From the NCBI GenBank assembly GCA_964406305.1, contig CAYORF010000002.1, forward strand, positions 130 to 64,129: DNA of 64,000 nucleotides. Reading direction: 5' to 3'. Below are positions 34,015-52,944 of the stretch, piece after piece. The notes under the pieces are model-generated. The model saw only the letters and a program-made list of their open reading frames with translations, was not told the origin of the DNA and made no database searches. The stretch is from an uncultured Anaerolineales bacterium (GTDB lineage: Bacteria; Chloroflexota; Anaerolineae; Anaerolineales; UBA11858). Position numbers and translations under genes: made by a program. Numbering within the stretch: position 1 is the first letter of the stretch; each line of letters begins with the position of its first letter.

Positions 34015-34380
34015 ATCAATGACCCAACATGATCTTATCGGAATAATGATCCTCCGCTTAAGATTGTGATGGGTCTATGATAGTGGGCGGTATTAGACAG
34101 ATCTAGAACCGTTTTTGGACTTAGGCGCTCATTTTCCACCACAACTTTTTTCAATCAACTAACGGCTTGCGTTACTTGCCCTGGAGCGGGGAGTGTGAAG
34201 CTGTCCCCTGAGAAATTGGTTGAGGCGTGAAAATGCATGAATCCGACCCAGAATCCCCAGCGTCAGGTGCACGCTTTGTTGGCCTAAATCGCACACACCG
34301 AGAGATGATATTGTCGTTCCGTCTTACTGTATCTCCTCAGCCGGAAAGCATAATTCGACAGTGTTACTCTTGAGGTCGGA

Positions 34381-34661
34381 GAGATTGGCAGGTCAGGATC
34401 TTCAACAACGGCTTTCTCTTGAAGTAAAGCTTTCTCGATCTCTTTTTCTGCTCCTGGTGAGATCCTGGCGTGCGTTTTTCGTTGATAGGCAATTGTAAAA
34501 TGATTTGGATTGCTTCGATATTCTTTCAACAAGTCGAAGAAGCGTGACTTGCCAATCCCTATCATTTCTTGAAGATCAGCTCTGCCAACCCGTCCTTGAC
34601 AATAACTCTGGAATAGAAGTTTGATTTGTTCATCTGTGAAACGTTTGTGGAGCTGTGACAT
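34381..34661 (-). pseudogene. Transposase gene fragment (first 94 codons)
   Basis: The N-terminal 94 aa of track ORF 34284..34661 are identical to the 194..1444 transposase. The remaining 31 aa come from unrelated DNA. Confidence 0.85.
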
Positions 34662-34772
34662 GGGTTCCTCCAGTTTGTATTGGAGGAGAAATCGTATATT
34701 ATCCCTTAGTTCCTGTCAAAACCAGGTGTCCACTTTCAAGCGTAAACTGTCCACTTTTGAAGTTTAAATAAC
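34381..34772 (-). mobile_element. Truncated IS remnant (transposase-proximal 392 bp only)
   Basis: Read by eye, it is base-for-base identical to 1164..1555 of IS copy 1. Identity stops abruptly at 34381. Confidence 0.85.
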
Positions 34773-34773
34773 A

Positions 34774-34790
34774 AGTCCTAAAAGAGTGGT
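34774..34790. repeat. 17-bp repeat AGTCCTAAAAGAGTGGT, copy 1 of 3
   Basis: Lies between the truncated IS end (..AAATAACA) and the start of the next IS (GTTAGG..). Confidence 0.85.
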
Positions 34791-36154
34791 GTTAGGGAAA
34801 CTTGAAAAGTGAACACTTATAAACTTCAAAAGTGAACCCTAAAACCCATCAATGGCAGCAATACAGCGTGCACCATTTTTTCACTCCACCATATTCGAAT
34901 ATGCATCACCCGCTTAGCTGTGTCCGGAACCATGTGAACATCGACATATTCTCGTAGAGGCACTTTGGGTACTTCAATCTCATGATTGAATAGAGAAATT
35001 CTGCGGTATCCATTGATCATCCTTTGAGTGCGCAAGCAGAACACATCTAATGGCGAAGTGTAGGGCTTAGGAAGCGAGAACTTCCGGAAAAGACTGTTCC
35101 CAGATTTCAGAGCTCGTTCAAAACGAATGCTTGGGATTTCACGGGTAGTCGAATGGACCTGATGGTTGTTATAACGGTCGATCTCATCTCTCAAGACACC
35201 CCTACAATCCTCAAACTCAGATATCTCTTCATAAATACAAGTTCTCACCATGCGGTCCTGCAGCCAGCGGTAAGGTCTCTCGACCTTGCCTTTTGCTTGA
35301 GGGGAAAGAGCGTAGGAGACATCCACGTTTATCAGCCGCATCATCTTGCCCCACTGAGTATCCACGTCATCGGTTTCGAGAACATGTCTTCGCCAAAAGC
35401 TATCCCTTCCCTGAACGAAACGAAATACCCGCAAGGAGTCCACATAGTAACGCAAGGGCAATCCATAGGTCATGATCAAGGCCTGGGTAGACTGGATGTG
35501 AGTCCAGGTGGTCTCCGCAGGGAAAAAGTCAGCGAAAAGGATCTTACGACTGTAGTCATCGATGGAGGTAATCAAGGTCCACTTCTTTTTGGACAGGGGA
35601 GACCACATATGAAGGGAGGCGTCATGCTGTACCAATGCACCAATGGAAGCGGTCAATACCTCACGGTCATGAACCTTTCTTTTCCTGCGAGGTTTGTGGC
35701 AGTCCAGTTTCTTGGCCCGGTCAATGATGGTGGTGATGGACACTTCGATCCCTTCCTTATAAAGTCGATCTCTTAGTGCTGTGTAGTTATATCCAGAGAT
35801 CGGCAAATCTGGGTTTTCTATAATCTCTTTCTCCCGTAGTAATGCCTTCTCAACCTCGGATTCCACTTCAGCAGACAATTTGGCAGGAGATTTCCTCTGA
35901 TAAGCGATGGAGAAAGTCTCTGGCCCTTGCCGATAGGTTTTCAGCAAGGCGAAAAACCGTGTTTTACCGATACCCAGAATCTCCTGAATATCGGCTCTTC
36001 TTATCTTGCCCTGGCTATACCTTTGCAGTAATACCTTGATCTGTTCAATAGTGAAGCTCTTATGTAGCTGACCCATTGATTTCTCCTTTTTTCAAGGATA
36101 AATCTATCAGGGTTTGGTAGTAGTGTAGGTGTTCACTTTTCAACTTTATATAAC
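34791..36154 (-). mobile_element. Complete IS; the most diverged member of the same family
   Basis: The ends are GTTAGGGAAAC...TTTATATAAC. Subterminal AAAGTGAAC(A/C) motifs are present. The same 17-mer flanks both sides. Confidence 0.85.
34826..36076 (-). CDS. DDE transposase (rve type), paralog
   Basis: 416 aa, colinear with the other two transposases. The HDAS, YYVDSLRVF and GKVERPYRWLQDR blocks are conserved. Confidence 0.85.
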   Translation of the reverse strand: MGQLHKSFTIEQIKVLLQRYSQGKIRRADIQEILGIGKTRFFALLKTYRQGPETFSIAYQRKSPAKLSAEVESEVEKALLREKEIIENPDLPISGYNYTALRDRLYKEGIEVSITTIIDRAKKLDCHKPRRKRKVHDREVLTASIGALVQHDASLHMWSPLSKKKWTLITSIDDYSRKILFADFFPAETTWTHIQSTQALIMTYGLPLRYYVDSLRVFRFVQGRDSFWRRHVLETDDVDTQWGKMMRLINVDVSYALSPQAKGKVERPYRWLQDRMVRTCIYEEISEFEDCRGVLRDEIDRYNNHQVHSTTREIPSIRFERALKSGNSLFRKFSLPKPYTSPLDVFCLRTQRMINGYRRISLFNHEIEVPKVPLREYVDVHMVPDTAKRVMHIRIWWSEKMVHAVLLPLMGFRVHF

Positions 36155-36171
36155 AGTCCTAAAAGAGTGGT
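36155..36171. repeat. 17-bp repeat AGTCCTAAAAGAGTGGT, copy 2 of 3
   Basis: Lies between the two complete IS elements. Confidence 0.85.
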
Positions 36172-37570
36172 GTTAGCAAAAGATGAAAAGTGGACACCTA
36201 TAAAGTTCAAAAGTGGACACTGAATCCCTGCAAAGGCAGGGAGACAGAATGAACCATCTTCTTGTTCCACCAGATGCGGATGTCCATAAGATCCTTCACT
36301 TCATCAGGCACCAGATGGATGTCAACAAGTTTCTGTAGAGGAACATTAGGGACTTCAATAACGTGTTTGAATAGAGAAATCCGACGGTATCTATTTACCC
36401 GGCGTTGCTCTCTAATACAAAAAACATCTTTCGGCGAAGTATAGGGCGGAGGTAGAGTTAGCTTGCGGAAGAGGCTGTTTCCCGATATCCTGGCTTTTTC
36501 AAACCGGACCTGGGGAATTTCACCGGTGGTTGAATGCACCTGGTGGTTGTTGTAACGGTCAAGTTCAGCTTTCAAAACACTGCGGACCTCATCTTTTTGG
36601 GATAGTTTTTCGTAAACGCATGTGCGGACGATACGATCCTGCAGCCAGCGATAGGGTCTCTCAACTTTGCCTTTTGCCTGCGGGGAAAGAGCATAACTGA
36701 CATCGACACCCAGCAGGCGCATCATCTTTCCCCATTGAGTATCAACATCGTCAGTTTCAAGCACATGTTTGCGCCAAACACTATCTCTACCCTGAACAAA
36801 ACGGAATACACGTAAAGAATCAACATAGTACCGCAAAGGAATCCCATATTGCTGGCACAGGGCCTGGGCCGCCCGAATATGGGCCCAGGTAGTCTCCCTG
36901 GAAACGAAGTCGGCATACAGGAGCTTGCGGCTGAAATCATCAATCGAAGTGATCAGGGTCCATTTCTCCTCCGCAAAGGGGGACCACTTATGTGTGGAAG
37001 CATCATGTTGGATTAGCGCACCTATGGATGAAGTTAGCACTTCCCGGTCATGAGCTTTTCTCTTTTTTCGCGGTTTATGACAATCAAGCTTTTTTGCCCG
37101 ATTGATGATGGTTGGTACAGAGACTTCGATACCGTTCTCTTTCAAGCGATCCTTCATCGCTGAGTAGTTGTATCCCGAGATTGGCAGGTCAGGATCTTCA
37201 ACAACGGCTTTCTCCTGAAGTAACGCTTTTTCTATCTCTGCTTCTGCTCCAGGTGAGATCCTGGCGTGTGTTTTCCGTTGATAGGCAATCGTGAAATGAT
37301 CTGGATCGTTTCGATATTCTTTCAGTAAAACGAAGAAGTGCGACTTGCCAATACCTATCATTTCTTGGAGATCAGTTCTGCTCATTTGTCCCTGGCGGTA
37401 ACTCTTGAATAAAAGCTTGATTTGTTCATCGGTGAAACGTTTGTGGAGCTGTGACATGGGTTCCTCCAGTTTCTATTGGAGGAGAAATCGTATATTATCC
37501 CTTCAAGCTTGTCAAAATCAGGTGTCCAGTTTTCAGGTTTAAACTGTCCACTTTTGAATTTTAAATAACA
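36172..37570 (-). mobile_element. Complete IS; close relative of IS copy 1
   Basis: The ends are GTTAGCAAAAG...TTTTAAATAACA, with the same subterminal TGGACA motifs as copy 1. Confidence 0.85.
36207..37457 (-). CDS. DDE transposase (rve type), paralog
   Basis: 416 aa. It is collinear with the 194..1444 protein and differs by scattered substitutions. Confidence 0.85.
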   Translation of the reverse strand: MSQLHKRFTDEQIKLLFKSYRQGQMSRTDLQEMIGIGKSHFFVLLKEYRNDPDHFTIAYQRKTHARISPGAEAEIEKALLQEKAVVEDPDLPISGYNYSAMKDRLKENGIEVSVPTIINRAKKLDCHKPRKKRKAHDREVLTSSIGALIQHDASTHKWSPFAEEKWTLITSIDDFSRKLLYADFVSRETTWAHIRAAQALCQQYGIPLRYYVDSLRVFRFVQGRDSVWRKHVLETDDVDTQWGKMMRLLGVDVSYALSPQAKGKVERPYRWLQDRIVRTCVYEKLSQKDEVRSVLKAELDRYNNHQVHSTTGEIPQVRFEKARISGNSLFRKLTLPPPYTSPKDVFCIREQRRVNRYRRISLFKHVIEVPNVPLQKLVDIHLVPDEVKDLMDIRIWWNKKMVHSVSLPLQGFSVHF

Positions 37571-37587
37571 AGTCCTAAAAGAGTGGT
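37571..37587. repeat. 17-bp repeat AGTCCTAAAAGAGTGGT, copy 3 of 3
   Basis: Its last T is the first T of TTGACA (37587-37592). Confidence 0.85.
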
Positions 37588-37615
37588 TGACAATTTTTAT
37601 TCTTTATGTTAACCT
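37587..37615 (+). promoter_or_regulatory. Candidate promoter of the arg/lys operon
   Basis: TTGACA, a 17-nt spacer, then TAACCT (a weak -10). Confidence 0.4.
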
Positions 37616-37657: not shown

Positions 37658-37747
37658 ATGGACTATCAAGTAAAAATTCACACCAATAATAAACCTCGTC
37701 GAAAGACCCTCCCTCCTTTACCTCTCATCCGGGTAGGTGTTTTTTAG
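37658..37747 (+). CDS. Possible leader peptide (29 codons) with a KPRRK core
   Basis: Encodes [29 protein letters not shown]. There is no SD. It lies between the candidate promoter and a strong terminator. Confidence 0.35.
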
Positions 37748-37767: not shown

Positions 37768-37808
37768 AAAAAGCCAGTCTCCATCCGGAGACTGGCTTTT
37801 TTTTTATT
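37768..37808 (+). terminator. Strong intrinsic terminator upstream of argG
   Basis: Perfect 10-bp stem GCCAGTCTCC / loop ATCC / stem GGAGACTGGC, flanked by A5 and T9. Confidence 0.8.
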
Positions 37809-37875
37809 AAGTCGCAGGCATTGGATTTGTATCAATAATGCAAATCGCCGTGATATACAGAGGAGAAAAGTTATC

Positions 37876-39138
37876 ATGACAAAGAGTTTTGAAAAAGTAG
37901 TGCTAGCGTACTCAGGTGGTTTGGACACATCTGTTATCCTCCATTGGCTCAAGGAGAACTATGGTTGTGAGGTCATCACCTTTACCGCAGATCTAGGCCA
38001 GGGTGCTGAAGAGCTGGAAGGCCTGGAGGAAAAAGCCTTGGCCAGCGGAGCCAGCAAAGTGTACATTGTAGACTTGCGTGAGGAATTTCTCACAGATTAT
38101 GCGTTCCTCACTTTACAGGCAGGCGCTATTTATGAGCATCTTTACCTGCTGGGTACTTCTTTTGCGAGGCCTATTACTTCCCAGAAATTGGTTGAGATAG
38201 CTGAGCAGGAAAATGCAGGAGCTATCTCTCATGGCTGCACCGGTAAAGGCAATGATCAGGTGCGTTTCGAATTAACAGCCAAAGCCCTGAATCCTTACTT
38301 GGAAGTGATCGCTCCCTGGCGGGAGTGGGATATCCGATCCCGGGAAGATGCGCTGGAGTATGCTAACAACCATGGTATATCTGTAAGCCAATCCCCAGGG
38401 TCAATTTACAGTCGTGACCGCAACATATGGCATATGAGCCACGAGGGCGGAGGTTTAGAAGATCCCTGGAAGGAACCTGATCCAGACGTCTTCTGTCTCA
38501 CCACAGCTCCAGAGGATGCACCTGTTCAACCCCAATATGTGGAAATCTCTTTTGATCAAGGGAATCCTGTATCCGTTGATGGTAAGGCGCTGGGTCCTGT
38601 GGAGTTACTTTCCTCTCTCAACGAGATTGGTGGTGCCCACGGAGTGGGTCGGGTGGACTTGGTCGAGAATCGGCTGGTAGGTATGAAATCGCGTGGCATC
38701 TACGAGACCCCAGGCGGCACCATTCTTTATACAGCTCACCAAGGTTTGGAGAGCATCTGCCTGGACCGCGATACACTTCATGCGAAAGCGCGGGTTGCCC
38801 AACGGTTCGCCGAATTGACCTATGACGGCAAATGGTTTACCCCGTTACATGAGGCGTTGCGAGCCTTTGTCGCGAAAACACAAGAGCGAGTGACAGGTTC
38901 GGTAATTATGAAACTTTATAAGGGAAACTGCTTTGTGGTAGGCCGCAAATCTTCATTCAGTCTCTACCGAGAGGATTTTGCTACCTTTGGAAGCGAAGAA
39001 GTCTTTAACCAGAGCGACGCCGAAGGATTCATCAATCTCTTCGGACTGCCTATGAAGGTGAAAGCGTTAGTCGACAGGGAAAACGCTGATGAGGACCACC
39101 AACCAACGATGGATTACAGTAAGTTTAGTGGAGATTAA
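37876..39138 (+). CDS. argG: Argininosuccinate synthase
   Basis: 420 aa. Contains [13 protein letters not shown] and [14 protein letters not shown]. Confidence 0.94.
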
Positions 39139-39189
39139 GGGACTCAGATCAGGTCGATTAAATCTCAGGGTGAAAAGGAGTTACAACTG

Positions 39190-40563
39190 ATGGCATTATG
39201 GGGTGGAAGGTTTGAGAAAGAGATGGAACCAATCATGCGAAGATTTAATGATTCTTTCGCTTTCGATTACAGATTATACGCTGCGGATATTGATGGCAGC
39301 TTAGCCTACGCCAGCGCATTGTCAAGAGCAGGATTGATCACTGAGGAGGAACTGGACCTGCTTTGTGAGGGACTTGAACAAGTACGCGCGGAGTTTGATG
39401 ACGGCTCTTTCGAAGCCCGACCAGGTGATGAGGATATCCACACTGCTGTTGAACGGCGGTTGGTTGAATTGGTGGGGGAAGCGGCAGAAAAGATTCACAC
39501 TGGACGCTCCCGCAACGACCAGGTTGCCACCGATTTGAGGCTTTACCTGTTAGAAGAAATCTCATCTTTAAGTGAGTTGTTGGGGGCGCTGCAAGCGGCT
39601 TTGGCCGAGCAGGCCGAAACCCATCTAGACGTCTATATGCCTGGTTACACCCATTTGCAGCAGGCCCAACCAATACTCTTTAGTCATTGGGTGATGGCAT
39701 ACTTTTGGAAGTTTCAGCGTGATTATGAGCGGTTGACCGAGGTTACATCCCGTACAAACGTTTGTCCCTTGGGTGCCGGTGCCCTTGCTGGGAATCCTTT
39801 TGAAATTGACCGAATGGCGCTTGCCGAAACCCTCAACTTTGACTCCATTAGTGAAAATAGTCTTGACGCGGTGAGTGATCGGGACTTCGTGGTGGAATTC
39901 ATGTCCTGGGCCGTGCTCACTCAAATTCATTTAAGCGGATGGGCAGAGGAACTTATTATATGGGCTAGCTCTGAATTCGGTTTCCTGGAGATCGATGATG
40001 CCTATGCAACCGGTTCCAGTTTAATGCCGCAAAAGAAGAATCCTGATTCGTTGGAACTGATTCGAGGGAAAAGTGGACGAGTGGTCGGTCATCTTGTAGG
40101 TCTATTGACTACGCTTAAAGGCCTTCCCCTGGCTTATAACAAGGATTTGCAGGAAGATAAAGAAGCACTCTTTGATGTGATAGATACATTAAAGATCGAA
40201 CTTCCCATCGCCACCGGTATTATCTGCACCATGAAGATAAATGCCAAACGGATGGCAGCGATGTTGAATGAGGAAATGCTTGCCACTGACCTCGCCGACT
40301 ACCTGGTGCGTGAAGGTGTACCGTTTCGCAAAAGTCATCACTTAGTTGGCCAAGCTGTTCTTCGAGCAGAGGAACTGGGCGTTCCTTTAAATGAGCTTGA
40401 CTTGAGCGAATACCAGGCGATCCATTCCTCTTTCACCGAAAGTGTGTACGGGGTTTTTGATGTGCAACAGTCAGTCAGTGCAAGAGCTGTCGAAGGAGGA
40501 ACTGCTCCCCAGGCGGTTCGAAACCAGATTAAAACAGCAAAAGACATCATAAAACATTTATGA
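39190..40563 (+). CDS. argH: Argininosuccinate lyase
   Basis: 457 aa. Contains LWGGRFE and the [12 protein letters not shown] signature. Confidence 0.94.
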
Positions 40564-40579
40564 AAAGGAAATTTTGATT

Positions 40580-40744
40580 ATGACTATGTGTCCAGAATGC
40601 GCAGCGGAATTAGAATTAGCTCCCGATACAGTTGAGGCCGAGATCATTGTCTGTCCTGATTGCGGTGTGGAGCTGGAAGTGATCAGTCTTGATCCCATTG
40701 AACTAGATCTTGCTCCAGAAGTCGAAGAAGATTGGGGCGAATAG
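40580..40744 (+). CDS. lysW: LysW amino-group carrier protein (54 aa)
   Basis: Encodes [54 protein letters not shown]. It has two CxxC pairs and the acidic EDWGE C-terminus. It is not in the ORF track because it is under 60 aa. Confidence 0.88.
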
Positions 40745-40829
40745 GGTTCACTATGTCCATGATTTCCACGCCGGTGCTTCACCTTCAGTGGGGGAAATAT
40801 ATCCTTATGGAAAGAAAAGAGATGAATTG

Positions 40830-41765
40830 ATGAACGAAAATAAAAGGAGGCATACCCAGAATGGGGAAGTGAAAGTTGGAGTTTTATGTTCGCGAATTCG
40901 TGTTGAAGAGAAATTACTGATTCAAGCGCTGCAGGAACGAAATGTGTCTTTCCAGAGCATCGACTCGAGGGATTTCGCTTTAGCGTTGGGGCAGGGCGAG
41001 GATTCATACCCGGACCCGACAAAGAGTTTGGAAACGTTGCAGGAATGTGATGTCGTCCTCATTCGGTGTTTGAGTCATTCTCGGGCTTATTATCTCAGCC
41101 GCTGGCTAGAGGGAAGAGGGATACCGACAGTGAGTTCACATCAGGCAATTACTACCTGTGGAGATAAGATGCTCACCAGCACTGCTTTACGGGAGGCCGA
41201 TGTGCCCATTCCAAATACCCGGATAGCCTTTACCAGAGAGACGGCTTTGGAAGCGATTGAAGAAATGAATTACCCGGTAGTGCTAAAACCCCTTTTTGGA
41301 TCATGGGGTCGATTACTAGCCCGCATCAACGATCGCTGTGCTGCTGAAGCCGTCCTGGAGCACAAGACAAGGTTGGGAGATTATACCCATGGGGTTTTTT
41401 ACATCCAGGAGTATGTCGAGAAACCGGGCCGGGATATCCGCAGTTTCGTAGTTGGTGATCGAACCATTGCTGCCATTTATCGCCAATCATCGCATTGGAT
41501 TACTAACACCGCCAGGGGAGGTGAGGCTACCAAATGCCCAATTACCACAGAAGTAGATTCCCTCTCCCGGGCTGCAGCTCGCGCGGTAGGTGGCGGTGTG
41601 GTGGCTATCGATCTATTAGAGGATCCTGATGGGCGTTTGTTGGTCAACGAAGTCAACCACACGCCAGAATTTCGCAACAGCATTGACGCCACTGGTGTGG
41701 ATATCCCAGGGGAGATCATTGATCACGTTTTGGAGGTTGCTATGAAGGGTAAGTCGGGGTGTTGA
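40830..41765 (+). CDS. lysX: LysX-type ATP-grasp ligase (amino acid--LysW ligase), paralog 1
   Basis: RimK/LysX family. Contains [30 protein letters not shown] and [10 protein letters not shown] trimmed the start to the ATG at 40830 because the track ORF overlaps lysW. Confidence 0.85.
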
Positions 41766-42634
41766 AGAGGGAGAAAATTGTGGGTGTTTTCTGCTCACGG
41801 GTCCGAATGGAAGAGAAGAAACTATTCTCGGCATTTCGGGCACAAGGAATACCATTTGAGCGGGTTGACGTGCGTCGTCAGATATTTTCTTTGAACGGCA
41901 AGAATCCTACCGAGCGTTTCGATGTGGTATTGATCCGTTGTTTGAGCCACACACGATCCCTTTATGTGGCAAAAATGTTGGAGCATCATGGTATGAGAGT
42001 GGTAAATGGACATCAATGCATCGCAATCTGCGGTGATAAGGTGTTAACTACGATGGCATTGAGAGAAAACAAGATACCGACACCTCGCACCACGATGACC
42101 TTTTCGCTGGAAAGTTCATTGATGGCCATGGAGGCGATGGGATATCCCGTGGTAATCAAGCCAGCCGTGGGTTCGTGGGGAAGGCTGATGGCTAAAGTCA
42201 ACGATCGGGAATCTGCCGAGGCTGTGTTGGAACATAAGCTAGCGTTGGGTCACGACTTCCCTTATTACATTCAGGAATTCGTTGAGAAACCAGGACGTGA
42301 CATCCGCACACTCGTAGTTGGAGAGAAGACGGTCTATGCCGTATACCGCGAGTCCCAACATTGGATTACAAATACCGCTCGGGGTGGAGAGACCTCCTTG
42401 TGCCCTGTCACTCCCGAAATTGACCGGATTTCCCAGGCTGCGGCCCGGGCTGTGAAAGGCGAGATTGTTGCGGTGGATCTTTTGGAGAAAGCTGATGGTG
42501 AGCTGCTGGTCAATGAAGTTAACCATACCCCGGAGTTTCACGGAGCTAGTAAGGTCGCCGAAGGGGACATTGCCAGCACAATTATCAAGTACATAAAAGA
42601 AGTGAGAGAAATTGAAAGGGGTAGGACACTTTAG
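41759..42634 (+). CDS. LysX-type ATP-grasp ligase, paralog 2 (possible ArgX-like glutamate--LysW ligase)
   Basis: 291 aa. It shares the motif set of paralog 1 ([39 protein letters not shown]). GTG start overlapping the stop of paralog 1. Confidence 0.8.
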
Positions 42635-42655
42635 AAAATATAAGGACTTATTGAC

Positions 42656-43693
42656 ATGATTCAAACTGCTATCGTTGGTGCATCAGGTTATGCAGGAGGA
42701 GAATTGCTTCGGTTGCTGCTTTCCCATCCTGAGATTGAAGTGACGCAGATCACATCAGAAAAGTATGCCAAACAATATGCCTATTTCGTCCATCCTAATC
42801 TTCGTAACCGCACCCAATTAAAGTTTCGAAAATTGGACGAACTTGAATCTGTTGACCTTCTGTTTTTGGCTTTGCCCCATGGCCATGCCATGAAACAGAT
42901 TGAGGTGTTCGCTGAGTTGGGGGAGCGAATTGTGGATTTGTCGGCTGATTTCCGATTAAGTGATCCGGCAAAATATCACCGTTGGTATGAAAAAGAACAT
43001 CTAGCTCCCCAATGGTTGGATCGATTTGTCTATGGCTTACCGGAGCTGCATCGAAAGGAACTAGTTAGCGCTAGATATGCTACTGGAACCGGCTGTAATG
43101 CCATTGTCACCACTTTGGCTCTCTGGCCATTATATAGGCGGGGCTTGGTCCGGGAGACAGTCGTAGAGGTCAAAGTGGGTTCGGCGGAGGGAGGCCATAA
43201 AGTCAACCCTGCTTCCCATCATCCGGAGCGGGCAGGGGTAGTCCGCTCCTACGCACCGGTAGGACATCGACATGTGGCTGAGTTGATCCAGGAGCTGGAC
43301 CTTGCTCCGGAGAAAAAGCGTCTCCATTTTTCAGTCACGTCGGTGGGTATTGTGCGAGGAGCATTGGCGACGTGTCATTGTCTGCTGGATGAGCCATTGG
43401 AGGAAAAAGACGCCTGGCGTTTCTACCGCGAAGATTATGGGGAAGAGCCATTTGTACGCCTTGCCCAGTCAAAGCGAGGCATTCACCGATTTCCGGAACC
43501 CAAAATCCTCTCCGGATCCAATTATTGTGACCTGGGCTTTGCTGCTGACCCAGCCAACAACCGTATGGTCGTCATCGCTGCAATTGATAATTTAATGAAA
43601 GGAGCGGCTGGCAATGCGGTGCAAACGATGAATTTGATGTGTGGATTCCCAGAAACTATGGGTTTGGAGTTCCCCGGCTTGCACCCTATCTAA
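42656..43693 (+). CDS. lysY: LysY/ArgC-type N-acyl-gamma-(amino)acyl-phosphate reductase
   Basis: 345 aa. Starts IVGASGYAGGELLRLL and contains GTGCNA (active-site Cys). Confidence 0.88.
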   Translation: MIQTAIVGASGYAGGELLRLLLSHPEIEVTQITSEKYAKQYAYFVHPNLRNRTQLKFRKLDELESVDLLFLALPHGHAMKQIEVFAELGERIVDLSADFRLSDPAKYHRWYEKEHLAPQWLDRFVYGLPELHRKELVSARYATGTGCNAIVTTLALWPLYRRGLVRETVVEVKVGSAEGGHKVNPASHHPERAGVVRSYAPVGHRHVAELIQELDLAPEKKRLHFSVTSVGIVRGALATCHCLLDEPLEEKDAWRFYREDYGEEPFVRLAQSKRGIHRFPEPKILSGSNYCDLGFAADPANNRMVVIAAIDNLMKGAAGNAVQTMNLMCGFPETMGLEFPGLHPI

Positions 43694-43874
43694 TGGCAAT
43701 GGACATTCACACCTTGCTCTTTGGTAGTTTGTGCCAACTTACAGGGATATCTTGCCCAACCCAAGGGCAGAGAGAAGTATAGCGAGAATATTGGGAGCGT
43801 TCCTGATACCGGGGGGGGCGTACAAATAAAAATAACCCAGTTAGGGATGCTAACTTTGAAGGGAGAAACAGGTA

Positions 43875-44690
43875 ATGATTGTAGTCAAAGCAGGTGGAAA
43901 TAGAGAGCTGGATATTTCGCCTATTTGTGATGATGTGGCTGAATTGATCCAAAAGGGAGAGCAGATTATTCTGGTCCATGGGGGTTCTGGTGAAACCAAC
44001 CGCATCTCCAAAAAATTGGGTAGCCCTCCTCGATTTGTGACCTCACCATCAGGGCATTCCAGCCGCTACACTGACCGGAAAACATGGGAGATTTATGCTA
44101 TGGTTGTAACCGGTCGGATTAACACACTGCTGGTTGAGCGACTGCAGCAATCAGGTGTCAATGCCCTTGGTCTTTCCGGTCTTGATGGTCGGCTTTTAGA
44201 AGGAAAACGCAAATCCTCTTTACGCATTATGGAGAATGGGAAGCCAAAGATGCTGCGAGGAGAGTACAGTGGAATCATTGAGAACGTTAATGTTAGTCTG
44301 CTTCAAATCTTGCTCGACGCCAACTATGTGCCTGTGGTAGCTCCGGTGGCTATCAGTTATCAGAATGAAGGATTGAACGTGGATGGAGATCGGGTGGCAG
44401 CTGCTATTGGTCGTGCCCTTGGGGCAGAACAAGTTATCATCCTTTCCAATGTTCCAGGTCTGTTGCGTGATGTTAATGATGAGGGATCACTGATTCCTTA
44501 TATCCCTGCCCGAGAAGCCAAGGATTATCTTAAGCATTATGCCAAGGGGCGCATGAAACGAAAAGTACTGGGAGCAATTGAAGCACTACAAGGCAGAGTA
44601 AGTCGGGTCATCATCGCAGATGGACGAGTGGAAGCTCCCATCCAACGGGCACTGGCTGGACATGGAACAGTATTTTCAAATGAGCACTAG
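43875..44690 (+). CDS. lysZ: LysZ/ArgB-type amino-acid kinase ([LysW]-aminoadipate/glutamate kinase)
   Basis: 271 aa. Starts MIVVKAGGN and contains ILVHGGS. Confidence 0.88.
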   Translation: MIVVKAGGNRELDISPICDDVAELIQKGEQIILVHGGSGETNRISKKLGSPPRFVTSPSGHSSRYTDRKTWEIYAMVVTGRINTLLVERLQQSGVNALGLSGLDGRLLEGKRKSSLRIMENGKPKMLRGEYSGIIENVNVSLLQILLDANYVPVVAPVAISYQNEGLNVDGDRVAAAIGRALGAEQVIILSNVPGLLRDVNDEGSLIPYIPAREAKDYLKHYAKGRMKRKVLGAIEALQGRVSRVIIADGRVEAPIQRALAGHGTVFSNEH

Positions 44691-44708: not shown

Positions 44709-45872
44709 ATGTGTAAAGATAATATCCAAGAATTCAAAATCATCGAGTCGACCTTACGAGAAGGGGAGCAATTCGTTGGTGCAAATTTTACCACCGGGCA
44801 AAAGATGGAAATTGCTCAGGCCCTTGACGATTTTGGCGTGGAGTATCTGGAACTTACTTCACCCATGGTCTCCCCCCAAAGTTATGAAGATATCAAGCAA
44901 ATTGCAAGTATGGGGCTGAAGGCCAAGATCCTGACCCATATTCGCTGCAGTAAAAGCGACGCGGCTCGGGCATTGGAGCTGCCCTTGGATGGAGTAGATA
45001 TCGTGATCGGAACAAGTTCTATGCTGCGGAAAATTTCCCACGGCAAGGAGATCCCTCAAATCATTGCCTTGGCTGAGGAAGTCATAGCATATATCAAAGA
45101 ACAACGACCTGAGCTGGAGATTCGGTTTAGCACAGAGGATTCCTTTCGAAGCGAGTCGGAAGACCTCTGGGAGGTATATCAGGTGGTTGATAGTATGGGT
45201 ATTGACCGGGTAGGGATTGCCGACACAGTGGGAGTTGCTACGCCCTTTGACGTATACGAACTAGCTTCTAAAATAAAGGGTTTGGTAAATGCCGAGTTGG
45301 AATTTCATGGTCATAACGATTCTGGATGTGCCATCGCAAATAGCTATGCTGCCCTCCTAGCTGGTGTGACTTGCATCGATACCAGCGTGTTAGGGATTGG
45401 GGAGCGAAATGGAATCACACCCCTGGGTGGTTTCATCGCTCGTCTTTATGCCACCGATCCTGATTTCATCCGCAATAAGTATAACCTGAAGACCCTCACG
45501 CGAGTGGACAAATTGGTAGCCGAATTAGTGGGTGTTGACATTCCCTTCAACAACTTCATCACGGGAATCACGGCCTTCACCCACAAAGCCGGCATCCATG
45601 CCAAAGCTATCTTGAACGACCCCCGGACTTATGAAATCATTGACCCCAAAGATTTTGGTCTGAGTCGTTATATATCGGTTGCCCACCGTTTGACCGGTTG
45701 GCATGCCATCAAATTGCGAGCCGAGCAGTTGGGGATTGAAATGAATGAAGAGAAAATCAAACGAGTTACCAGCCATGTCAAGGTGCTTGCTGACGAGAAG
45801 CCATTATCACTGGATGACGTGGATGCTGTTCTCAAACGCTGGGGCAGTAATGGACAAGATTATATAGATTGA
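44709..45872 (+). CDS. hcs: Homocitrate synthase, LYS20/Thermus type
   Basis: 387 aa. Contains [12 protein letters not shown] and [17 protein letters not shown]. Confidence 0.85.
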
Positions 45873-45886
45873 AAAGGAAAGGACCT

Positions 45887-47083
45887 ATGAGCGAACAGAA
45901 ATCATCACAGACAATGGAAGCGTATCCGGAAGAAGGGATGAAATCGAAGATCAAGGGACCGGTGTACATCGATGATACTACCTTACGCGATGGGGAACAA
46001 ACCGCTGGTGTAGTTTTTGCTAATGAGGAAAAAATTCACATTGCCAAAATGTTATCCAGGATTGGGGTTCATCAAATTGAAGTTGGCATTCCAACTATGG
46101 GAGGCGATGAGAAAGAAGCCATCAAACAGATCGTGGATCTTGAACTCCCTACCAGTATTCTCGCTTGGAATCGGGCAGTGATCAGTGACATAAAGCATTC
46201 TCTCGATTGTGGTGTAGATGCTGTGGCTGTCTCTATTTCTGCCTCGGACATCCACATCGAAAACAAGTTGCGCCGGGACCGGCAGTGGGTCTTGGACTCC
46301 ATCCTGAGTGCTGTAGAATTCGCCAAAGACCATCAGCTTTATGTTTCTGTGAATGCTGAGGATGCCTCCCGCGCCGACCCTGAATTCCTGATTGAATTTG
46401 CCAATGCAGCCAAGCAGTCAGGGGCTGACCGGCTCCGTTACTGCGATACAGTCGGCATCCTTGATCCTCTGGAAACCTACAAACGAGTAAAAACCTTGAT
46501 CCAGGAAGTGGATCTGCCGATTGAAATGCACACACATAACGATTTCGGGATGGCCACAGCCAACGCGATTGCCGGACTTGAGGCTGGTGCGACCTATGTT
46601 AATACCACAGTAAATGGATTAGGTGAACGAGCGGGAAATGCCGCTTTGGAAGAATTGGTAATGGCACTTCAATATACTGTAGGAGTCGAGATGGATATCC
46701 AGACCTCGCTTTTCCGTGATCTTGGGGAATATGTCGCTTTGGCTTCAGGGCGTATGCTGCCAGCCTGGAAACCGATTGTGGGAAGCAACCTTTTCGTTTA
46801 CGAATCCGAAGGACGAGCTAGCGGTGTGATCCGCGACCCAACGACGTACGAGATCTTTTGGCCTGGCGAGGTGGGTTTGTTGCGCCGATTCAGTGTAGGA
46901 AAATACTCAGGTCCCAGCGTCATTCGCCGCAAGCTTCGGGAGCAGGGGTATCACCCCTCCAAAGAGGAAGTCCAGAAGCTGGTACCCATCATGCGGTCCC
47001 GCTCGATTGCCTTGAAACGGTCTTTATTTGACAATGAGGTGGTTGAAGTTTATTCAATGTTGAGAGAGAGGAGAGATGTATGA
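45887..47083 (+). CDS. NifV/AksA-like 2-oxoacid:acetyl-CoA condensing enzyme, paralog A
   Basis: Contains [14 protein letters not shown] and HTHNDFGMATANAIAGL. It lacks a LeuA-type C-terminal regulatory domain. I chose the ATG at 45887 behind AAAGGAAAGGA; the track offers a TTG at 45869. Confidence 0.8.
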   Translation: MSEQKSSQTMEAYPEEGMKSKIKGPVYIDDTTLRDGEQTAGVVFANEEKIHIAKMLSRIGVHQIEVGIPTMGGDEKEAIKQIVDLELPTSILAWNRAVISDIKHSLDCGVDAVAVSISASDIHIENKLRRDRQWVLDSILSAVEFAKDHQLYVSVNAEDASRADPEFLIEFANAAKQSGADRLRYCDTVGILDPLETYKRVKTLIQEVDLPIEMHTHNDFGMATANAIAGLEAGATYVNTTVNGLGERAGNAALEELVMALQYTVGVEMDIQTSLFRDLGEYVALASGRMLPAWKPIVGSNLFVYESEGRASGVIRDPTTYEIFWPGEVGLLRRFSVGKYSGPSVIRRKLREQGYHPSKEEVQKLVPIMRSRSIALKRSLFDNEVVEVYSMLRERRDV

Positions 47084-48243
47084 GCAGGTTATCGAACATT
47101 AGATTATTGGATACTACCCTGCGGGACGGAGAACAGGCGGTAGGTGTAATCTTTACTCCTCGAGAGAAAAGGCAAATTTCTTCCATACTGGCGGCCATTG
47201 GCATTCCTGCTGTTGAGGTTGGTTTCCCTGCCTTGGGACCTGAGGAAAAAGCCTGTATTCTTGCTGTTGTGGATGCTGGTATCATGACTAAAGATGGAAA
47301 TCCCTTGGAGGTCAGCGCCTTTGCAAGAGCAAGGCGGGAAGATGTGAAAGATGCAGCTGATTGTCACGTGGATAGTGTCATTATTTCCATTTCTACCTCT
47401 GATACTCATATTGAACGCAAGTTTCAGGCCGATCAAGCGTGGGTCTTAGAACAAGTGAAAGAGGCTGCAGAGGAAGCAGAAAAACACAATCTGGCCTTTA
47501 CTATAAGTGCTGAAGATGCCTCTCGAACTGAACTTAGCTTTTTAATTGAGTTTTTTCGTCTAGCTGAGGAAATCGGGGCTGTGAGGGTGCGCTACTGTGA
47601 CTCCCTGGGTGTTGAGGATCCTTACACCAGCTACCGGCGGATCAAATACATCCGGCAAGAAACTTCCCTTCCTATAGAAGTGCACATGCACAATGATTTT
47701 GGGATGGCCACGGCCAATGTCATGGCTGGGATACGGGCTGGGGCGAGTTCTGTGGTCGGTTCCATTGGAGGACTTGGGGAACGGACAGGTAATTCCCCGA
47801 TAGAAGAGGTAGTGATGGCTTTGAAGCATCTGTACGGAATGGATTTGGGCATTGACACCTCTCAATTCCGTGAAGTGGCTGAATATGTGGCTCAAGCGAG
47901 CCAGCGGGCTATCCCCATCTGGAAAGCCATTGTTGGGACTAATGTTTTTGCCCATGAGTCCGGGATTCACGCAGATGGCATCCTCAAGAACCCAGATAGT
48001 TATGAAGCCTTCAAGCCTGAAGAGGTAGGGTTAGAACGTCAAATTGTGATTGGCAAGCATTCTGGCACCCAGTCGCTGAAGCATAAATTCCTGGCCGGAT
48101 TTAGAATTGAACTGGATGATGAGACGGCCCAGGAATTGCTGGAAAAGGTGCGTTCCACAACCGTGGAGCTTAAGAGGCCGCTTTTCAATAAGGAATTGAT
48201 ACTGTTGTATGAAGACACAAATTCAAAGCCAAGTAAAGAGTGA
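47080..48243 (+). CDS. NifV/AksA-like 2-oxoacid:acetyl-CoA condensing enzyme, paralog B
   Basis: 387 aa. Contains [14 protein letters not shown] and HMHNDFGMATANVMAGI. ATGA overlap with paralog A. Confidence 0.8.
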   Translation: MSRLSNIRLLDTTLRDGEQAVGVIFTPREKRQISSILAAIGIPAVEVGFPALGPEEKACILAVVDAGIMTKDGNPLEVSAFARARREDVKDAADCHVDSVIISISTSDTHIERKFQADQAWVLEQVKEAAEEAEKHNLAFTISAEDASRTELSFLIEFFRLAEEIGAVRVRYCDSLGVEDPYTSYRRIKYIRQETSLPIEVHMHNDFGMATANVMAGIRAGASSVVGSIGGLGERTGNSPIEEVVMALKHLYGMDLGIDTSQFREVAEYVAQASQRAIPIWKAIVGTNVFAHESGIHADGILKNPDSYEAFKPEEVGLERQIVIGKHSGTQSLKHKFLAGFRIELDDETAQELLEKVRSTTVELKRPLFNKELILLYEDTNSKPSKE

Positions 48244-48266
48244 GGAATGACTTTAGGAGTAAAACA

Positions 48267-49511
48267 ATGGGACATACCTTGGCAGAAAAGATTATTGGAA
48301 ACAGGATTGGACGAGAAGTAAAGGTTGATGAGTTTGTGATAGCTCCGGTGGATGTACTCTTTGCTCATGAAGGGACGGGACCATTAGCATTGGACCAATT
48401 AGAAGTAATGGGGAAAGGGAAGATAGCCACCACTGGTCTTTTCTTTTCCGACCACGCAGCACCCCCACCTCGCAAAGAGCTGGCTGATGTTCAAAGACGA
48501 TTACGCTCCTTTGCTGAGGAGGTTGGGGCTGAGTTCCATCAGCCAGGAACGGGAATCTGCCACCAGCTGGTGGCAGAAGAATGGGCCATTCCAGGACAAA
48601 TCATAATTGGTGCTGATTCCCACACTTGTAGTGCTGGTGCGTTGGGCGCTTTCGGCACTGGTATGGGATCTACAGATGTTGCTATCGCTCTGGCTTTGGG
48701 TAAGATTTGGCTCCGGATTCCTGAGACCATCCGGGTTGAGATTCATGGGCAGCTGCCAAAAGGTGTTTACGCCAAAGATGTGATCTTGCATTTAATCGGG
48801 TACCTTGGAGCAGATGGAGCGATCTATAAAGCCCTGGAATACGGGGGTCCGACTGTGGATGCGATGAGCATCGAGGAACGGTTGACCCTGGCAAATATGG
48901 CTGTTGAGGCGGGGGCGAAAGCCGGCCTGTGCGCTGCCGACGAGACTACCCGGGAATATTTGGAAAAGCGAGGGCGCGTTCAAGATTACCAGGCGATTGA
49001 ACCGGACCCGGATGCTCATTACGAAAGAGTGGTCGAACTGGATGTCAGCCAGATCACCCCTCAGGTTGCTTTCCCCCACTTTGTGGATAATATTCACTCC
49101 ATCGAAGAGGTAGAGGAGATACCCCTTGACCAGGTGTTTATTGGCACCTGCACCAATGGGCGGTTATCTGATCTTCGGGTAGCAGCTCAGATATTGAAAG
49201 GGGAACAGATTGACCCTCGTCTGCGGCTGTTGGTGGGACCGGCTTCCCGCCAGGTATACAAGGATGCAATTAAAGAGGGGCTGATCGACATATTTATCGA
49301 TGCCGGAGGCACAATCCTTCCCCCGGGATGCGGGCCTTGTGTGGGCGTTCATCAAGGCGTACTGGCCGAGGGAGAACGCTGTCTTTCCACCCAGAATCGG
49401 AATTTCAAAGGGCGGATGGGCAATCCGGAGTCTGAGATCTATTTGGCTTCACCAGCAACGGCAGCTGCATCGGCGATCACGGGTATTATCACAGATCCAC
49501 GAACCTTGTAA
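48267..49511 (+). CDS. hacA: Homoaconitase / isopropylmalate-isomerase-type large subunit (short archaeal-like form)
   Basis: Starts MGHTLAEKII behind AGGAG. Contains GADSHT, GTCTNGR and CGPCVG cluster-ligand motifs. Confidence 0.85.
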   Translation: MGHTLAEKIIGNRIGREVKVDEFVIAPVDVLFAHEGTGPLALDQLEVMGKGKIATTGLFFSDHAAPPPRKELADVQRRLRSFAEEVGAEFHQPGTGICHQLVAEEWAIPGQIIIGADSHTCSAGALGAFGTGMGSTDVAIALALGKIWLRIPETIRVEIHGQLPKGVYAKDVILHLIGYLGADGAIYKALEYGGPTVDAMSIEERLTLANMAVEAGAKAGLCAADETTREYLEKRGRVQDYQAIEPDPDAHYERVVELDVSQITPQVAFPHFVDNIHSIEEVEEIPLDQVFIGTCTNGRLSDLRVAAQILKGEQIDPRLRLLVGPASRQVYKDAIKEGLIDIFIDAGGTILPPGCGPCVGVHQGVLAEGERCLSTQNRNFKGRMGNPESEIYLASPATAAASAITGIITDPRTL

Positions 49512-49538
49512 GGTAACAGGAAATCAGTGGAGGAAAAC

Positions 49539-50039
49539 ATGGAAAAAATCATTCAAGGTCCTATCTGGCGTTTTGGGGATGGGATCAGCACCGATCACAT
49601 CACACCAGGTAGGTATTACCACCTCCGGGGTGATCTCTCAGCTTTGGCTAAACATACTCTAGAAGATGAAAATCCGGACTTTGCTCAGAACGCCAAACCG
49701 GGTGACATCATAGCCGCCGGTAAGAACTTTGGACAAGGATCCTCCCGAGAACATGCCGCGTTGGTGCTCAAAGAGAGGGGTATTCTAGCTGTATTATCCC
49801 CTTCATTCGCCCGTATCTTTTATCGCAATGCTGTCAATGTGGGTGTCCTCCCCATCATCTGTGAGACAGAGGGCTTTCAGGATGGTGACGCAATCCGGAT
49901 TGATTTGGCAGAAGGTCAGGTTACAAATCTGACCCAGAACTTAGTACACCCATTTTCTCCACTTCCTCCTATCATGAGGGAGATCCTGGAGGATGGAGGC
50001 CTTGTCCCCCATGTGCTAGAACGAGGAGGGTTGGGATGA
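49539..50039 (+). CDS. hacB: Homoaconitase-type small subunit
   Basis: Contains NFGQGSSREHAALVL. The ATG at 49539 lies 5 nt after GGAGG. Confidence 0.85.
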   Translation: MEKIIQGPIWRFGDGISTDHITPGRYYHLRGDLSALAKHTLEDENPDFAQNAKPGDIIAAGKNFGQGSSREHAALVLKERGILAVLSPSFARIFYRNAVNVGVLPIICETEGFQDGDAIRIDLAEGQVTNLTQNLVHPFSPLPPIMREILEDGGLVPHVLERGGLG

Positions 50040-51043
50040 GTTCTCATGAAGTGGTGCTAATCCCCGGGGATGGCATCGGCCCAGAGGTAGCAAGCGCAGC
50101 GCAGGCTGTGATCGATGCCACCGGAGTCGATATCAGATGGCATACTTACCAGGCAGGCATCGCTTCCCTGGAGGAGGGAGACAGATCCTTACCTGAGGAG
50201 CTCCTGGAGGCTATCCGCCAATATGGCATCGCGCTGAAAGGGCCCCTCACTACCCCCGTTGGGGGCGGTTTTTCCAGCGTGAATGTGGCTCTCCGCCAGC
50301 GGTTGGGGCTATACGCTAATCTGCGCCCAGTGCGGACTATCCCGGGAGCCCCCAGCCGGTACCAGGACGTAGACCTGGTCATTATCCGGGAGAACACGGA
50401 AGGCCTCTATAGCGGCGATGAGCGCTGGGAAGACGACGATTCGGTAGTAGGGTTGAAAAGGGTCACACGGGAGGCCAGTCTCCGCATCGCCCGATTCGCC
50501 TTCAACTTTGCTTCCCAGCACGGTCGCGGAAAGGTCACCGCTACCCACAAGGCCAATATACTTAAGGAGTCCGATGGGCTTTTCCTGACCTGTGCCCGGG
50601 AGGTAGCCAAAGCCTATCCTCAGGTCCATTTTACGGATCGCATTATTGACGCACTGTGCATGGACCTGGTGATGGATCCCAACCAACATGATGTTTTATT
50701 ATGCCCCAATCTTTACGGAGACATCATTTCCGACTTAGCAGCAGGACTTGTGGGCGGGTTAGGCAATGTCCCTAGCGCCAACATCGGCCAAGATGCTGCT
50801 ATCTTTGAAGCTGTACATGGCTCCGCACCTGACATCGTTGGTAAAGGGATCGCCAATCCCACGGCACTAGTTTTGGCCGGGGTAATGATGCTCTCTCATT
50901 TAGGAGAGGATGAAGCAGCCGAGAAATTGTCAAAGAGCGTGCGAAACCTGTATGAGAGTGGTGGACCGCTAACCCCTGATTTAGGTGGGGAGGCTACAAC
51001 CGAGGACATGACGCGAGAGTTGGTATCGAACTTAAAACTATAG
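50036..51043 (+). CDS. Homoisocitrate / isocitrate-family beta-decarboxylating dehydrogenase
   Basis: 335 aa. Contains IPGDGIGPEV and NLYGDIISD. ATGA overlap with hacB. Confidence 0.85.
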   Translation: MSSHEVVLIPGDGIGPEVASAAQAVIDATGVDIRWHTYQAGIASLEEGDRSLPEELLEAIRQYGIALKGPLTTPVGGGFSSVNVALRQRLGLYANLRPVRTIPGAPSRYQDVDLVIIRENTEGLYSGDERWEDDDSVVGLKRVTREASLRIARFAFNFASQHGRGKVTATHKANILKESDGLFLTCAREVAKAYPQVHFTDRIIDALCMDLVMDPNQHDVLLCPNLYGDIISDLAAGLVGGLGNVPSANIGQDAAIFEAVHGSAPDIVGKGIANPTALVLAGVMMLSHLGEDEAAEKLSKSVRNLYESGGPLTPDLGGEATTEDMTRELVSNLKL

Positions 51044-52858: not shown

Positions 52859-52944
52859 ATAATCCAGGAATGGCGGATGGTGCAAATTATCCAAGTAAGT
52901 GGATGGCAGACCGCCTTTCTCAAAGTCCACAGGTAGGAGAAAGT

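Follow-up and report, generated by a model that had tools for sequence, protein, structure and literature searches.

In the archaea Sulfolobus acidocaldarius and Sulfurisphaera tokodaii, the loading of the amino-group carrier protein LysW is divided between two separate ligases, LysX and ArgX (Ouchi et al. 2013, as summarised in PMC12998189; ArgX structure 3VPB). These are ATP-grasp enzymes of the RimK family, in which a GSWGR motif recognises the EDWGE tail of LysW and Mg is bound by the ligands D...E.N, and their subtypes are distinguished by a five-residue signature: F-I-T-NS in LysX, which acts on aminoadipate, I-Y-V-GF in ArgX, and Y-I-T-NA in the bifunctional enzyme of Thermococcus (Shi et al. 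2025, PMC12998189). The same authors, from the laboratory that discovered LysW, modelled bacteria as users of LysW for lysine only that keep the N-acetyl route to arginine (PMC12998189), and in the current literature carrier-protein arginine synthesis is regarded as an archaeal trait. Literature searches returned no paper on a bacterial ArgX or on LysW-dependent arginine synthesis in Chloroflexota; a preprint citing MetaCyc places the bacterial genera Thermobaculum and Deinococcus among the organisms with this variant arginine pathway. The locus described here is a LysW operon located in a 64,000-nt stretch of DNA (the window) from an uncultured Anaerolineales bacterium of the Chloroflexota (GenBank assembly GCA_964406305.1, contig CAYORF010000002.1, positions 130 to 64,129), in which argG and argH are followed by lysW and by two tandem ligase genes, designated ligA and ligB. 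Judging from its sequence, the operon quite probably serves a dual LysW pathway yielding both lysine and, via ornithine, arginine, with the ligB product loading glutamate.

In such a pathway the homocitrate synthase, HacAB, and the homoisocitrate dehydrogenase (HICDH) would convert 2-oxoglutarate to 2-oxoadipate, and an aminotransferase would turn the latter into alpha-aminoadipate. LigA, of the LysX type, would ligate aminoadipate to the C-terminal Glu of LysW, while LigB, an ArgX-like enzyme of a bacterial "H-G-A" class, would ligate glutamate to the same LysW. A single LysZ–LysY–LysJ–LysK set would then phosphorylate, reduce, transaminate, and release both cargoes to give lysine and ornithine, and ornithine would be taken to arginine by an ornithine carbamoyltransferase (OTC, the argF product) encoded elsewhere, together with ArgG and ArgH. 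The presumed dual specificity of the shared enzymes is credible because their Thermus counterparts accept glutamate-derived substrates: LysZ shows ca. 60% of its native activity on LysW-Glu derivatives, the LysY step was estimated at 10–20%, and LysJ and LysK accept analogues from the arginine pathway (PMC12998189). A leader-peptide attenuator, in which Arg and Lys codons would be read, probably governs the whole unit. The original prediction for this locus, which had read it as a combined lysine and arginine pathway, draws support from genome-wide absences, ligase phylogeny, specificity signatures, and co-occurrence across relatives, presented below; all the computational checks proposed with it turned out in its favour.

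The two ligases are 54% identical to each other. LigA shares 55% identity with LysX of T. thermophilus (3VPD, E = 1e-90), and LigB 49% with the same enzyme (E = 4e-76) and 33% with S. tokodaii ArgX. The ATP-binding Lys in (L/I)KP, the GSWGRL motif, and the Mg-binding (I/V)DLLE...NEVN are retained in both, and neither is a dead paralogue. The signature positions (182, 192, 203, and 258–259 in the Thermus numbering) were read from HMMER alignments to 3VPD, 3VPB, and 5K2M, which reproduce all three published signatures. LigA carries F-I-T-NS, exactly the LysX type, and LigB carries L-V-T-GA with a His at 257, a combination that is neither that of the LysX subtype nor that of Sulfolobales ArgX, and which is ArgX-like at 182 (aliphatic) and 258 (Gly). 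Consequently, LigB is not classed as a member of the ArgX subtype and is only proposed to act alike; as its motif differs from that of Sulfolobus ArgX, its glutamate specificity is one that we infer. LigB departs from LysX at 182, 258, and 259, the positions at which mutations move Thermus and Sulfolobus LysX toward glutamate (PMC12998189, PMC10433800). In Thermus LysX, F182I by itself raises the glutamate activity to the level of that with aminoadipate, and the strongest glutamate preference results from N258G/S259F combined with I192Y and T203V (PMC12998189). Exchange of N-T for G-F in Sulfolobus LysX also moves the preference to glutamate, and the glutamate-specific ArgX of haloarchaea has A-L at 258–259 and thus no Asn258 (Wu et al. 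2023, PMC10433800).

In all, 86 ligases were recovered from 64 Anaerolineae genomes and ca. 100 more from 80 named loci. Sorting the named loci by the patterns EVNHTPEF and YRxSxHWITN did not separate the two ligase classes, and they were sorted by the motif instead. All upstream ligases of tandem pairs, and all lone ligases of ArgJ-bearing genomes, have F-I-T-(R/K)NS, and all downstream ligases of the pairs have [LM]-[VIM]-T-H-G-A. The original prediction had named recent duplication of LysX as an outcome that would speak against it; in the careful maximum-likelihood tree each ligase clusters with those in the equivalent position in other families, LigB falling into a clade of 100/99 support with their HGA ligases and LigA lying with the upstream partners. 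A sister relationship of LigA and LigB is rejected by the approximately unbiased (AU) test on this tree (dlnL 64.5, p = 0.004) and is not formally rejected on the quick tree (p = 0.074). By this phylogeny, the two are old paralogues rather than products of a recent duplication, and at least 11 families have kept both. Uniting the HGA ligases in one clade was not rejected and gave a better score than the tree from the free search; S. tokodaii ArgX and T. kodakarensis LysX fall inside the LysX clade, a long-branch placement which was not relied on. When groups were set by gene order alone in 27 tandem pairs, nine of 277 aligned positions split the upstream from the downstream ligase (34, 181, 182, 190, 257, 258, 259, 260, and 262). 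The nine include 182, 258, and 259, which belong to the five published specificity positions, and the majority of the remaining six flank these three (hypergeometric p = 2.3e-4), so the divergence of the paralogues is concentrated on the substrate pocket.

The distribution of the second ligase was followed in an even sample of 151 Anaerolineae genomes (the class sample), 106 of which have LysX above the cut-off; one genome, G055, was added to the two-ligase set. Two ligases are present in 24 of the 106, and ArgJ in none of these 24; at most one ArgB-family gene, located in the ligase cluster, is found in 23 of them, the exception being G124, with two ArgB-family matches read as fragments. Among the 82 genomes with a single LysX, ArgJ is present in 65, of which 62 have two ArgB-family genes. 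The second ligase and ArgJ/ArgB are thus mutually exclusive across the relatives, a pattern repeated in at least 11 families. Within the genus of this bacterium, four of the five LysX carriers have two ligases and no ArgJ; G194, the one carrier with a single ligase, is the sole ArgJ genome of the genus.

The host genome is a 3.04-Mb metagenome-assembled genome (MAG) in 208 contigs, 96.6% complete and 2.25% contaminated, in which the window represents contig C2. Genome-wide searches, with positive Thermus control rows, found no ArgJ, and no ArgB-family kinase besides LysZ, the one weak match being a carbamate kinase. tblastn revealed no paralogues of LysY or LysZ and a single copy of lysW. The original prediction, which had noted the lack of classical argJ, argB, and argC in the window, therefore extends to the entire assembly, where LysZ and LysY are the sole ArgB- and ArgC-family genes. 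lysA and dapA were not found in the genome either. The formation of ornithine from glutamate semialdehyde was considered and rejected, as no genome match to ornithine aminotransferase exceeded the family cut-off; apart from LysJ, the best match is encoded in a cluster of catabolic character, which also has genes for aldehyde:ferredoxin oxidoreductases, a catabolic-type OTC, and agmatinase. With no other lysine or ornithine route visible, the operon would, on the visible genes, be the only source of both. The earlier statement that argF lies outside the window is correct, and the gene is present in the genome in two copies, an anabolic type on contig C172 and a catabolic one on contig C56, beside agmatinase and the aldehyde:ferredoxin oxidoreductases. 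The only visible source of carbamoyl phosphate is presumably a carbamate kinase on contig C7 (47000–51000, L010), encoded beside two carbamoyltransferases and purine deaminases.

The gene order around the ligases takes three forms in the relatives. In tandem clusters it is lysW-LysX-HGA-lysYZJK, with argGH present or not. In split ones, hcs-hacAB-HICDH-lysW-LysX-lysK and lysW-(HGA or A-I-T-RS ligase)-lysYZJK occupy two different sites. Single-ligase clusters have the order argGH-lysW-ligase-lysYZJK, the ligase being of the HGA (G015 and G048), F-I-T-TT (G009, G012, and G056), or I-M-T-TM type (G036 and G079, members of the same taxonomic order as the host); the genomes with the TT and TM types carry lysA. 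In the two HGA-only genomes the ligase is likewise placed in argGH-lysW-lig-lysYZJK, and no homocitrate synthase was found in the 100% complete G015, with only LeuA-like matches of 26–31% identity in G048. In these two genomes, the HGA ligase cannot serve lysine synthesis from aminoadipate.

As a separate observation, the F-I-T-TT, I-M-T-TM, and A-I-T-RS ligases (L067, L068, L069, L070, L074, L048, L057, and L064) arise inside the LysX clade. Whether as the only ligase or as the second one, they belong to argGH-lysW-lig-lysYZJK or lysW-lig-lysYZJK clusters, in genomes devoid of ArgJ, and they seem to mark additional, independent departures from the LysX signature.

Linkage to the arginine genes was also found in the 80 named loci, in which argGH is no more than 3 kb away from 16 of the 25 lone His257/non-Asn258 ligases and from none of the 33 lone RNS-type ones. 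MAGs labelled Dormibacterota, Actinomycetes, and Limnocylindrales have argHG beside an I-I-T-H-GF ligase together with an hcs-hac-lysW-LysX-lysKYZJ block, and those labelled Caldisericota and Thermotogaceae have argGH-lysW-HGA-lysY-LysX. The same design in loci from other phyla means that it is not confined to Anaerolineae, and the original wording, "in a bacterium", understates a distribution that is wide in this class and reaches other phyla.

Read jointly, these observations tip somewhat in favour of a broader picture, in which the HGA ligases (His257-Gly258-Ala259 with an aliphatic residue at 182) would form a distinct bacterial family of glutamate–LysW ligases, not orthologous to archaeal ArgX and possibly basal in the LysX/ArgX tree. 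LysW-dependent ornithine synthesis would then replace ArgJ/ArgB/ArgC as the usual way to arginine in much of the Anaerolineae and would also occur in several other phyla, with the same end apparently reached in other lineages at least two more times via the LysX-derived TT/TM and RS ligases, and with a shared leader-peptide attenuator whose Arg or Lys codons match the product of the operon.

Several points weigh against the dual pathway. The genomes compared are kin, so that the Fisher p of 4e-13 for the mutual exclusion overstates their independence. The motif of LigB is a hybrid, LysX-like in T203 and the aliphatic residue 192 and neither LysX- nor ArgX-like at 259, and swapping of motifs does not always carry the specificity over (PMC10433800). 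No clear LysN was found. No carB, the gene for the large subunit of carbamoyl-phosphate synthase, was found here or in five relatives, some of them represented by 99–100% complete assemblies. It was likewise missing from half of the class sample, 75 genomes other than this one, with 99–100% complete relatives that have argF, argG, and argH among them. The absences come from an MAG in 208 contigs and are therefore not proof. Moreover, most congeners lack the whole system, and auxotrophy is common in the lineage: of 31 species-level genomes in the genus, five contain LysX and the other 26 lack both LysX and ArgJ, whence the lysine/arginine operon is an accessory trait in a mostly auxotrophic genus. 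Finally, the lone ligase of G134, with the motif VITSS, groups with the HGA type, yet this genome has hcs2 and hcs3, so some members of the HGA group may be bifunctional.

That last point leads to the alternative in which LigB itself would be bifunctional for glutamate and aminoadipate, similarly to Thermococcus LysX, and LigA would be an added aminoadipate-specific enzyme shielding lysine synthesis from competition by abundant glutamate; the pathway would still be dual, without a strict assignment of one ligase to each amino acid. Glutamate competition in bifunctional systems, argued for in PMC12998189, would select for such an added LysX, and LigB keeps T203 and shares Ala259 with the bifunctional Y-I-T-NA type (PMC12998189). 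In G134 the cluster with the lone HGA-grouping ligase also includes hcs2/hcs3-hacAB-HICDH, and the genome, whose assembly is just 88% complete, has no lysA or ArgJ. Nevertheless, all HGA ligases have Gly in place of the Asn258 that the LysX and bifunctional types share, and the HGA-only genomes lack a LysS-type homocitrate synthase, which makes this alternative unlikely. A glutamate-loading LigB beside an aminoadipate-loading LigA is preferred also to the possibility that both are LysX isozymes, redundant or differently regulated, in a cell that makes no ornithine de novo and in which ArgG and ArgH would act only on citrulline or ornithine taken up from outside and would lie in this operon incidentally. 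Both ligases pass the cut-off of the LysX hidden Markov model (HMM) and resemble Thermus LysX more than they do Sulfolobus ArgX, and the missing carB, the catabolic-type OTC with agmatinase, and the lack of any arginine and lysine synthesis in most congeners would fit isozymes as well. However, isozymes leave unexplained the mutual exclusion of the second ligase and ArgJ/ArgB in the 151 genomes, the location of HGA ligases beside argGH, where lone LysX ligases never occur, the HGA-only genomes without homocitrate synthase, the difference of the paralogues precisely at the specificity positions, and the age of a paralogy maintained in so many families, and we consider them very improbable. The least probable proposal, that LigB loads a different amino acid onto LysW on the way to something else than arginine (ornithine used solely in the cell wall, or a non-proteinogenic amino acid as in the carrier-protein pathways of Streptomyces), could appeal to an HGA motif unlike that of any characterised ligase and to the actinomycete carrier-protein ligases that Hasebe and colleagues are reported to have described in secondary metabolism in 2016, but the operon and its surroundings hold no genes of secondary metabolism, the repeated tight linkage is to argG and argH, the leader peptides contain Arg codons, and ornithine for the cell wall would require the same chemistry as the glutamate-loading reading favoured here.

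The putative control region of the operon lies in the 290 nt between an insertion sequence (IS) array and argG. The array (34284–37592) comprises two full and one partial copy of an ISNCY-like element arranged head to tail, and ends at the TTGACA of the candidate promoter. The TTGACA and a TATGTTA block are conserved in the leaders of G172 and G194. The terminator hairpin differs from that of G172 by two compensatory changes in the stem, and its core, CCAGNCYYC-N3-7-GRRGNCTGG, has a single occurrence in the 3.04-Mb genome; within 1.5 Mb of related loci it is confined to 5' leaders of lysW/argG operons. Such core-bearing leaders were found in nine other genomes of the class sample, from at least five families, and in four named MAGs. 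Each has a short open reading frame (ORF) with its UAG stop inside a conserved GGRUAGG, preceded in several cases by a recognisable ribosome-binding site (RBS) of the AGGA type; similar short ORFs with Arg and/or Lys codons occupy the same relative place in the leaders of the nine other genomes, and in most leaders a GAGCCAG just upstream of the stop recurs in the 5' arm of the terminator. With this layout, the leader is a well-supported candidate for an attenuator of the classical 1:2 / 2:3 / 3:4 kind.

The Arg and Lys codons of the leader peptides roughly track the content of the operons. Arginine-only operons have ERRP (L099), GRRPRK (L102), and IRRPSK (L104); dual ones have IRRRTK (L090) and, in the window, KPRRK; lysine-only ones have RKKKCKKAK (G047) and KPRLK (G194, in which the same leader directly precedes lysW). 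This lends weak independent support to a response of the operon to both arginine and lysine. In minimum-energy folds of the full-length leader with a ribosome mask the terminator was never lost, and thus a purely thermodynamic test does not support the attenuator; in the folds of truncated transcripts with the same mask the terminator 5' arm pairs with region 2 in five of six leaders of canonical form, which supports the attenuator in part. No Rfam family was found in the argG leader here or in 12 related loci. A T-box or a lysine riboswitch is thus not supported for the LysW operon, the only T-box of the region belonging to trpE (RF00230, 97.9 bits, 55452–55812, with its own terminator), which starts the next unit. 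An imperfect palindrome, ATTTGTAT-caata-ATGCAAAT (37822–37842), located between the leader terminator and the argG RBS and not conserved in G172, could be an operator. The lysine cluster of Thermus is reportedly controlled by a lysine-codon leader peptide (attributed to Tsubouchi and colleagues, 2005), which the leader of this operon resembles.

The features of the operon are collected in Table 1. The order argG-argH-lysW-two ligases-lysY-lysZ proposed originally was found as described, with all genes on the + strand at the positions given, and lysW, 54 codons long with an EDWGE tail, indeed starts 16 nt after argH. lysJ and lysK, assigned to the same stretch of 37876–44690, are real but lie well beyond it. 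Since three hcs paralogues, hacA, hacB, the HICDH gene, and one more gene separate lysZ from lysJ, the unit is a 16-gene, 17.3-kb operon, in which the genes overlap or are less than 60 nt apart, except for 85–125 nt after lysW and 181 nt after lysY. LysW has a zinc ribbon, CPEC...CPDC (CxxC...CxxC), and the C-terminus ...EVEEDWGE, with the final Glu of EDWGE as the cargo site. The probable start of ligA is GTG 40869, with ATG 40830 in the same frame as a possible alternative, and the ligB ORF opens at GTG 41759, with a likelier start at GTG 41780, preceded by an AGGGAG Shine–Dalgarno sequence.

Table 1. Features of the LysW operon and its leader (positions in the window; bit scores with family cut-offs in brackets)
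Feature	Positions	Strand	Match or remark
Candidate promoter, TTGACA, 17-nt spacer, TGnTAACCT	37587–37615	+	inferred; at the end of the IS array
Candidate leader ORF, 29 aa	37658–37747	+	Lys-Pro-Arg-Arg-Lys codons at 37691–37705
Terminator hairpin, 15-bp stem, core CCAGTCTCC-ATCC-GGAGACTGG, then T9 run	37768–37810	+	candidate attenuator; 75 nt before argG ATG
argG, argininosuccinate synthase	37876–39138	+	NF001770, 609.6 bits (334)
argH, argininosuccinate lyase	39190–40563	+	TIGR00838, 621.5 bits (279.5)
lysW, amino-group carrier protein, 54 aa	40580–40744	+	TIGR01206, 68 bits (53.2); PF21344, 65 bits
ligA, LysX-type [LysW]-aminoadipate ligase	40869–41765	+	TIGR02144, 336 bits (275.6)
ligB, second ATP-grasp ligase, predicted glutamate–LysW ligase	41780–42634	+	TIGR02144, 310 bits (275.6)
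lysY, [LysW]-aminoadipyl/glutamyl-phosphate reductase (ArgC family)	42656–43693	+	TIGR01850, 361 bits
lysZ, [LysW]-aminoadipate/glutamate kinase (ArgB family)	43875–44690	+	NF010659, 386 bits; NF010662, 210 bits (194)
hcs1, LysS-type homocitrate synthase	44709–45872	+	TIGR02146, 462.5 bits (413.6)
hcs2, NifV-type homocitrate-synthase paralogue	45869–47083	+	
hcs3, NifV-type homocitrate-synthase paralogue	47080–48243	+	
hacA, homoaconitase	48240–49511	+	
hacB, homoaconitase	49527–50039	+	
Homoisocitrate dehydrogenase (HICDH)	50036–51043	+	
591-aa protein, function not assigned	51083–52858	+	Walker A GESGAGKSET
lysJ, [LysW]-semialdehyde aminotransferase (ArgD family)	52870–54141	+	TIGR00707, 437 bits (410); NF042418, 492 bits
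lysK, [LysW]-lysine/ornithine hydrolase	54144–55199	+	NF003367, 415 bits (363)

The products of hcs2 and hcs3 are 46% identical. The pair is kept 3' of lysZ in LysW clusters of several phyla and takes the place of the LysS type in G055 and G134; it may constitute a heteromeric synthase or one of a second specificity. Homologues of the 591-aa protein were found in this genus only, in seven of 24 other genomes, and at the five loci examined the gene adjoins hacB-HICDH or hcs3/lysJ. Searches of PDB, Pfam, and NCBIfam gave only sub-threshold P-loop matches to PEPCK (PEPCK_ATP) and HprK (HprK_C), and the AlphaFold model, made from a six-sequence alignment, is unusable (mean pLDDT 37.7). The 64-kb surroundings are devoted almost entirely to amino-acid biosynthesis, with leu/ilv-type genes, an aroK-aroB fusion, hom-ask-asd-thrC, metA-metY, the LysW operon, and then trpEGDC. 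In the hom-ask-asd-X-thrC operon, a 393-aa ORF on the - strand (26221–27402), located between thrC and asd, belongs to no Pfam or NCBIfam family and is unlike HomK (TIGR02535). No thrB above the cut-off was found in the genome (best match 28 bits), and this ORF is a candidate for the missing homoserine kinase.

In the NCBI and JGI annotation both ligases are named "LysX", and their closest named relatives come from MAGs labelled "Anaerolineae bacterium" and from one Thermoflexales MAG. Because of this shared name, automated reconstructions would score such organisms as arginine auxotrophs, and an annotation gap of this kind was met in a Thermoflexus study (PMC8129789). The design with LysX and an ArgX-like second ligase has been shown experimentally in archaea only, and the class of LigB is bacterial, widespread, and uncharacterised. 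A natural bacterial two-ligase system devoid of ArgJ/B/C and with a signature of its own would fill a missing state in the evolutionary model, and the HGA class would offer a second, independent solution to the discrimination between glutamate and aminoadipate, beside that of Sulfolobus ArgX.

The system of the Sulfolobus type and the operon described here both have one LysW, two paralogous ATP-grasp ligases, and one shared set of LysZ, LysY, LysJ, and LysK, and in both cases the genome lacks an N-acetylglutamate pathway and the ligase decides, or here would decide, between lysine and ornithine. Unlike in Sulfolobus, the host is a bacterium, and argG, argH, and the aminoadipate-forming enzymes are all gathered in one operon; LigB, with L-V-T-(H)GA in place of I-Y-V-GF, falls into a separate clade and is not an orthologue of ArgX, the archaeal references being on long branches. 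The LysW pathway of Thermus thermophilus (LysX structures 3VPD and 1UC8) shares with this operon the F-I-T-NS signature, identical in LigA, the EDWGE tail, and the downstream enzymes, but it is used for lysine only by an organism that keeps ArgJ/ArgB/ArgC/ArgD, while this genome lacks them and has the second ligase. In Thermococcus kodakarensis one LysW system likewise leads to lysine and ornithine owing to a bifunctional LysX/ArgX (5K2M; Yoshida et al. 2016), which has Ala259 in common with LigB; it is, however, a single ligase of the Y-I-T-NA type, whereas two are encoded here, with no Asn258 in LigB. The haloarchaeal ArgW/ArgX system of Natrinema gari (PMC10433800) combines a glutamate-specific ligase lacking Asn258 with lysine synthesis via diaminopimelate (DAP), a lifestyle resembled by those relatives that carry a single non-Asn ligase beside argGH together with lysA (G036, G079, G009, G012, and G056). 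In contrast to the haloarchaeal system, the window described here also encodes the route through aminoadipate, and a DAP pathway is absent from it.

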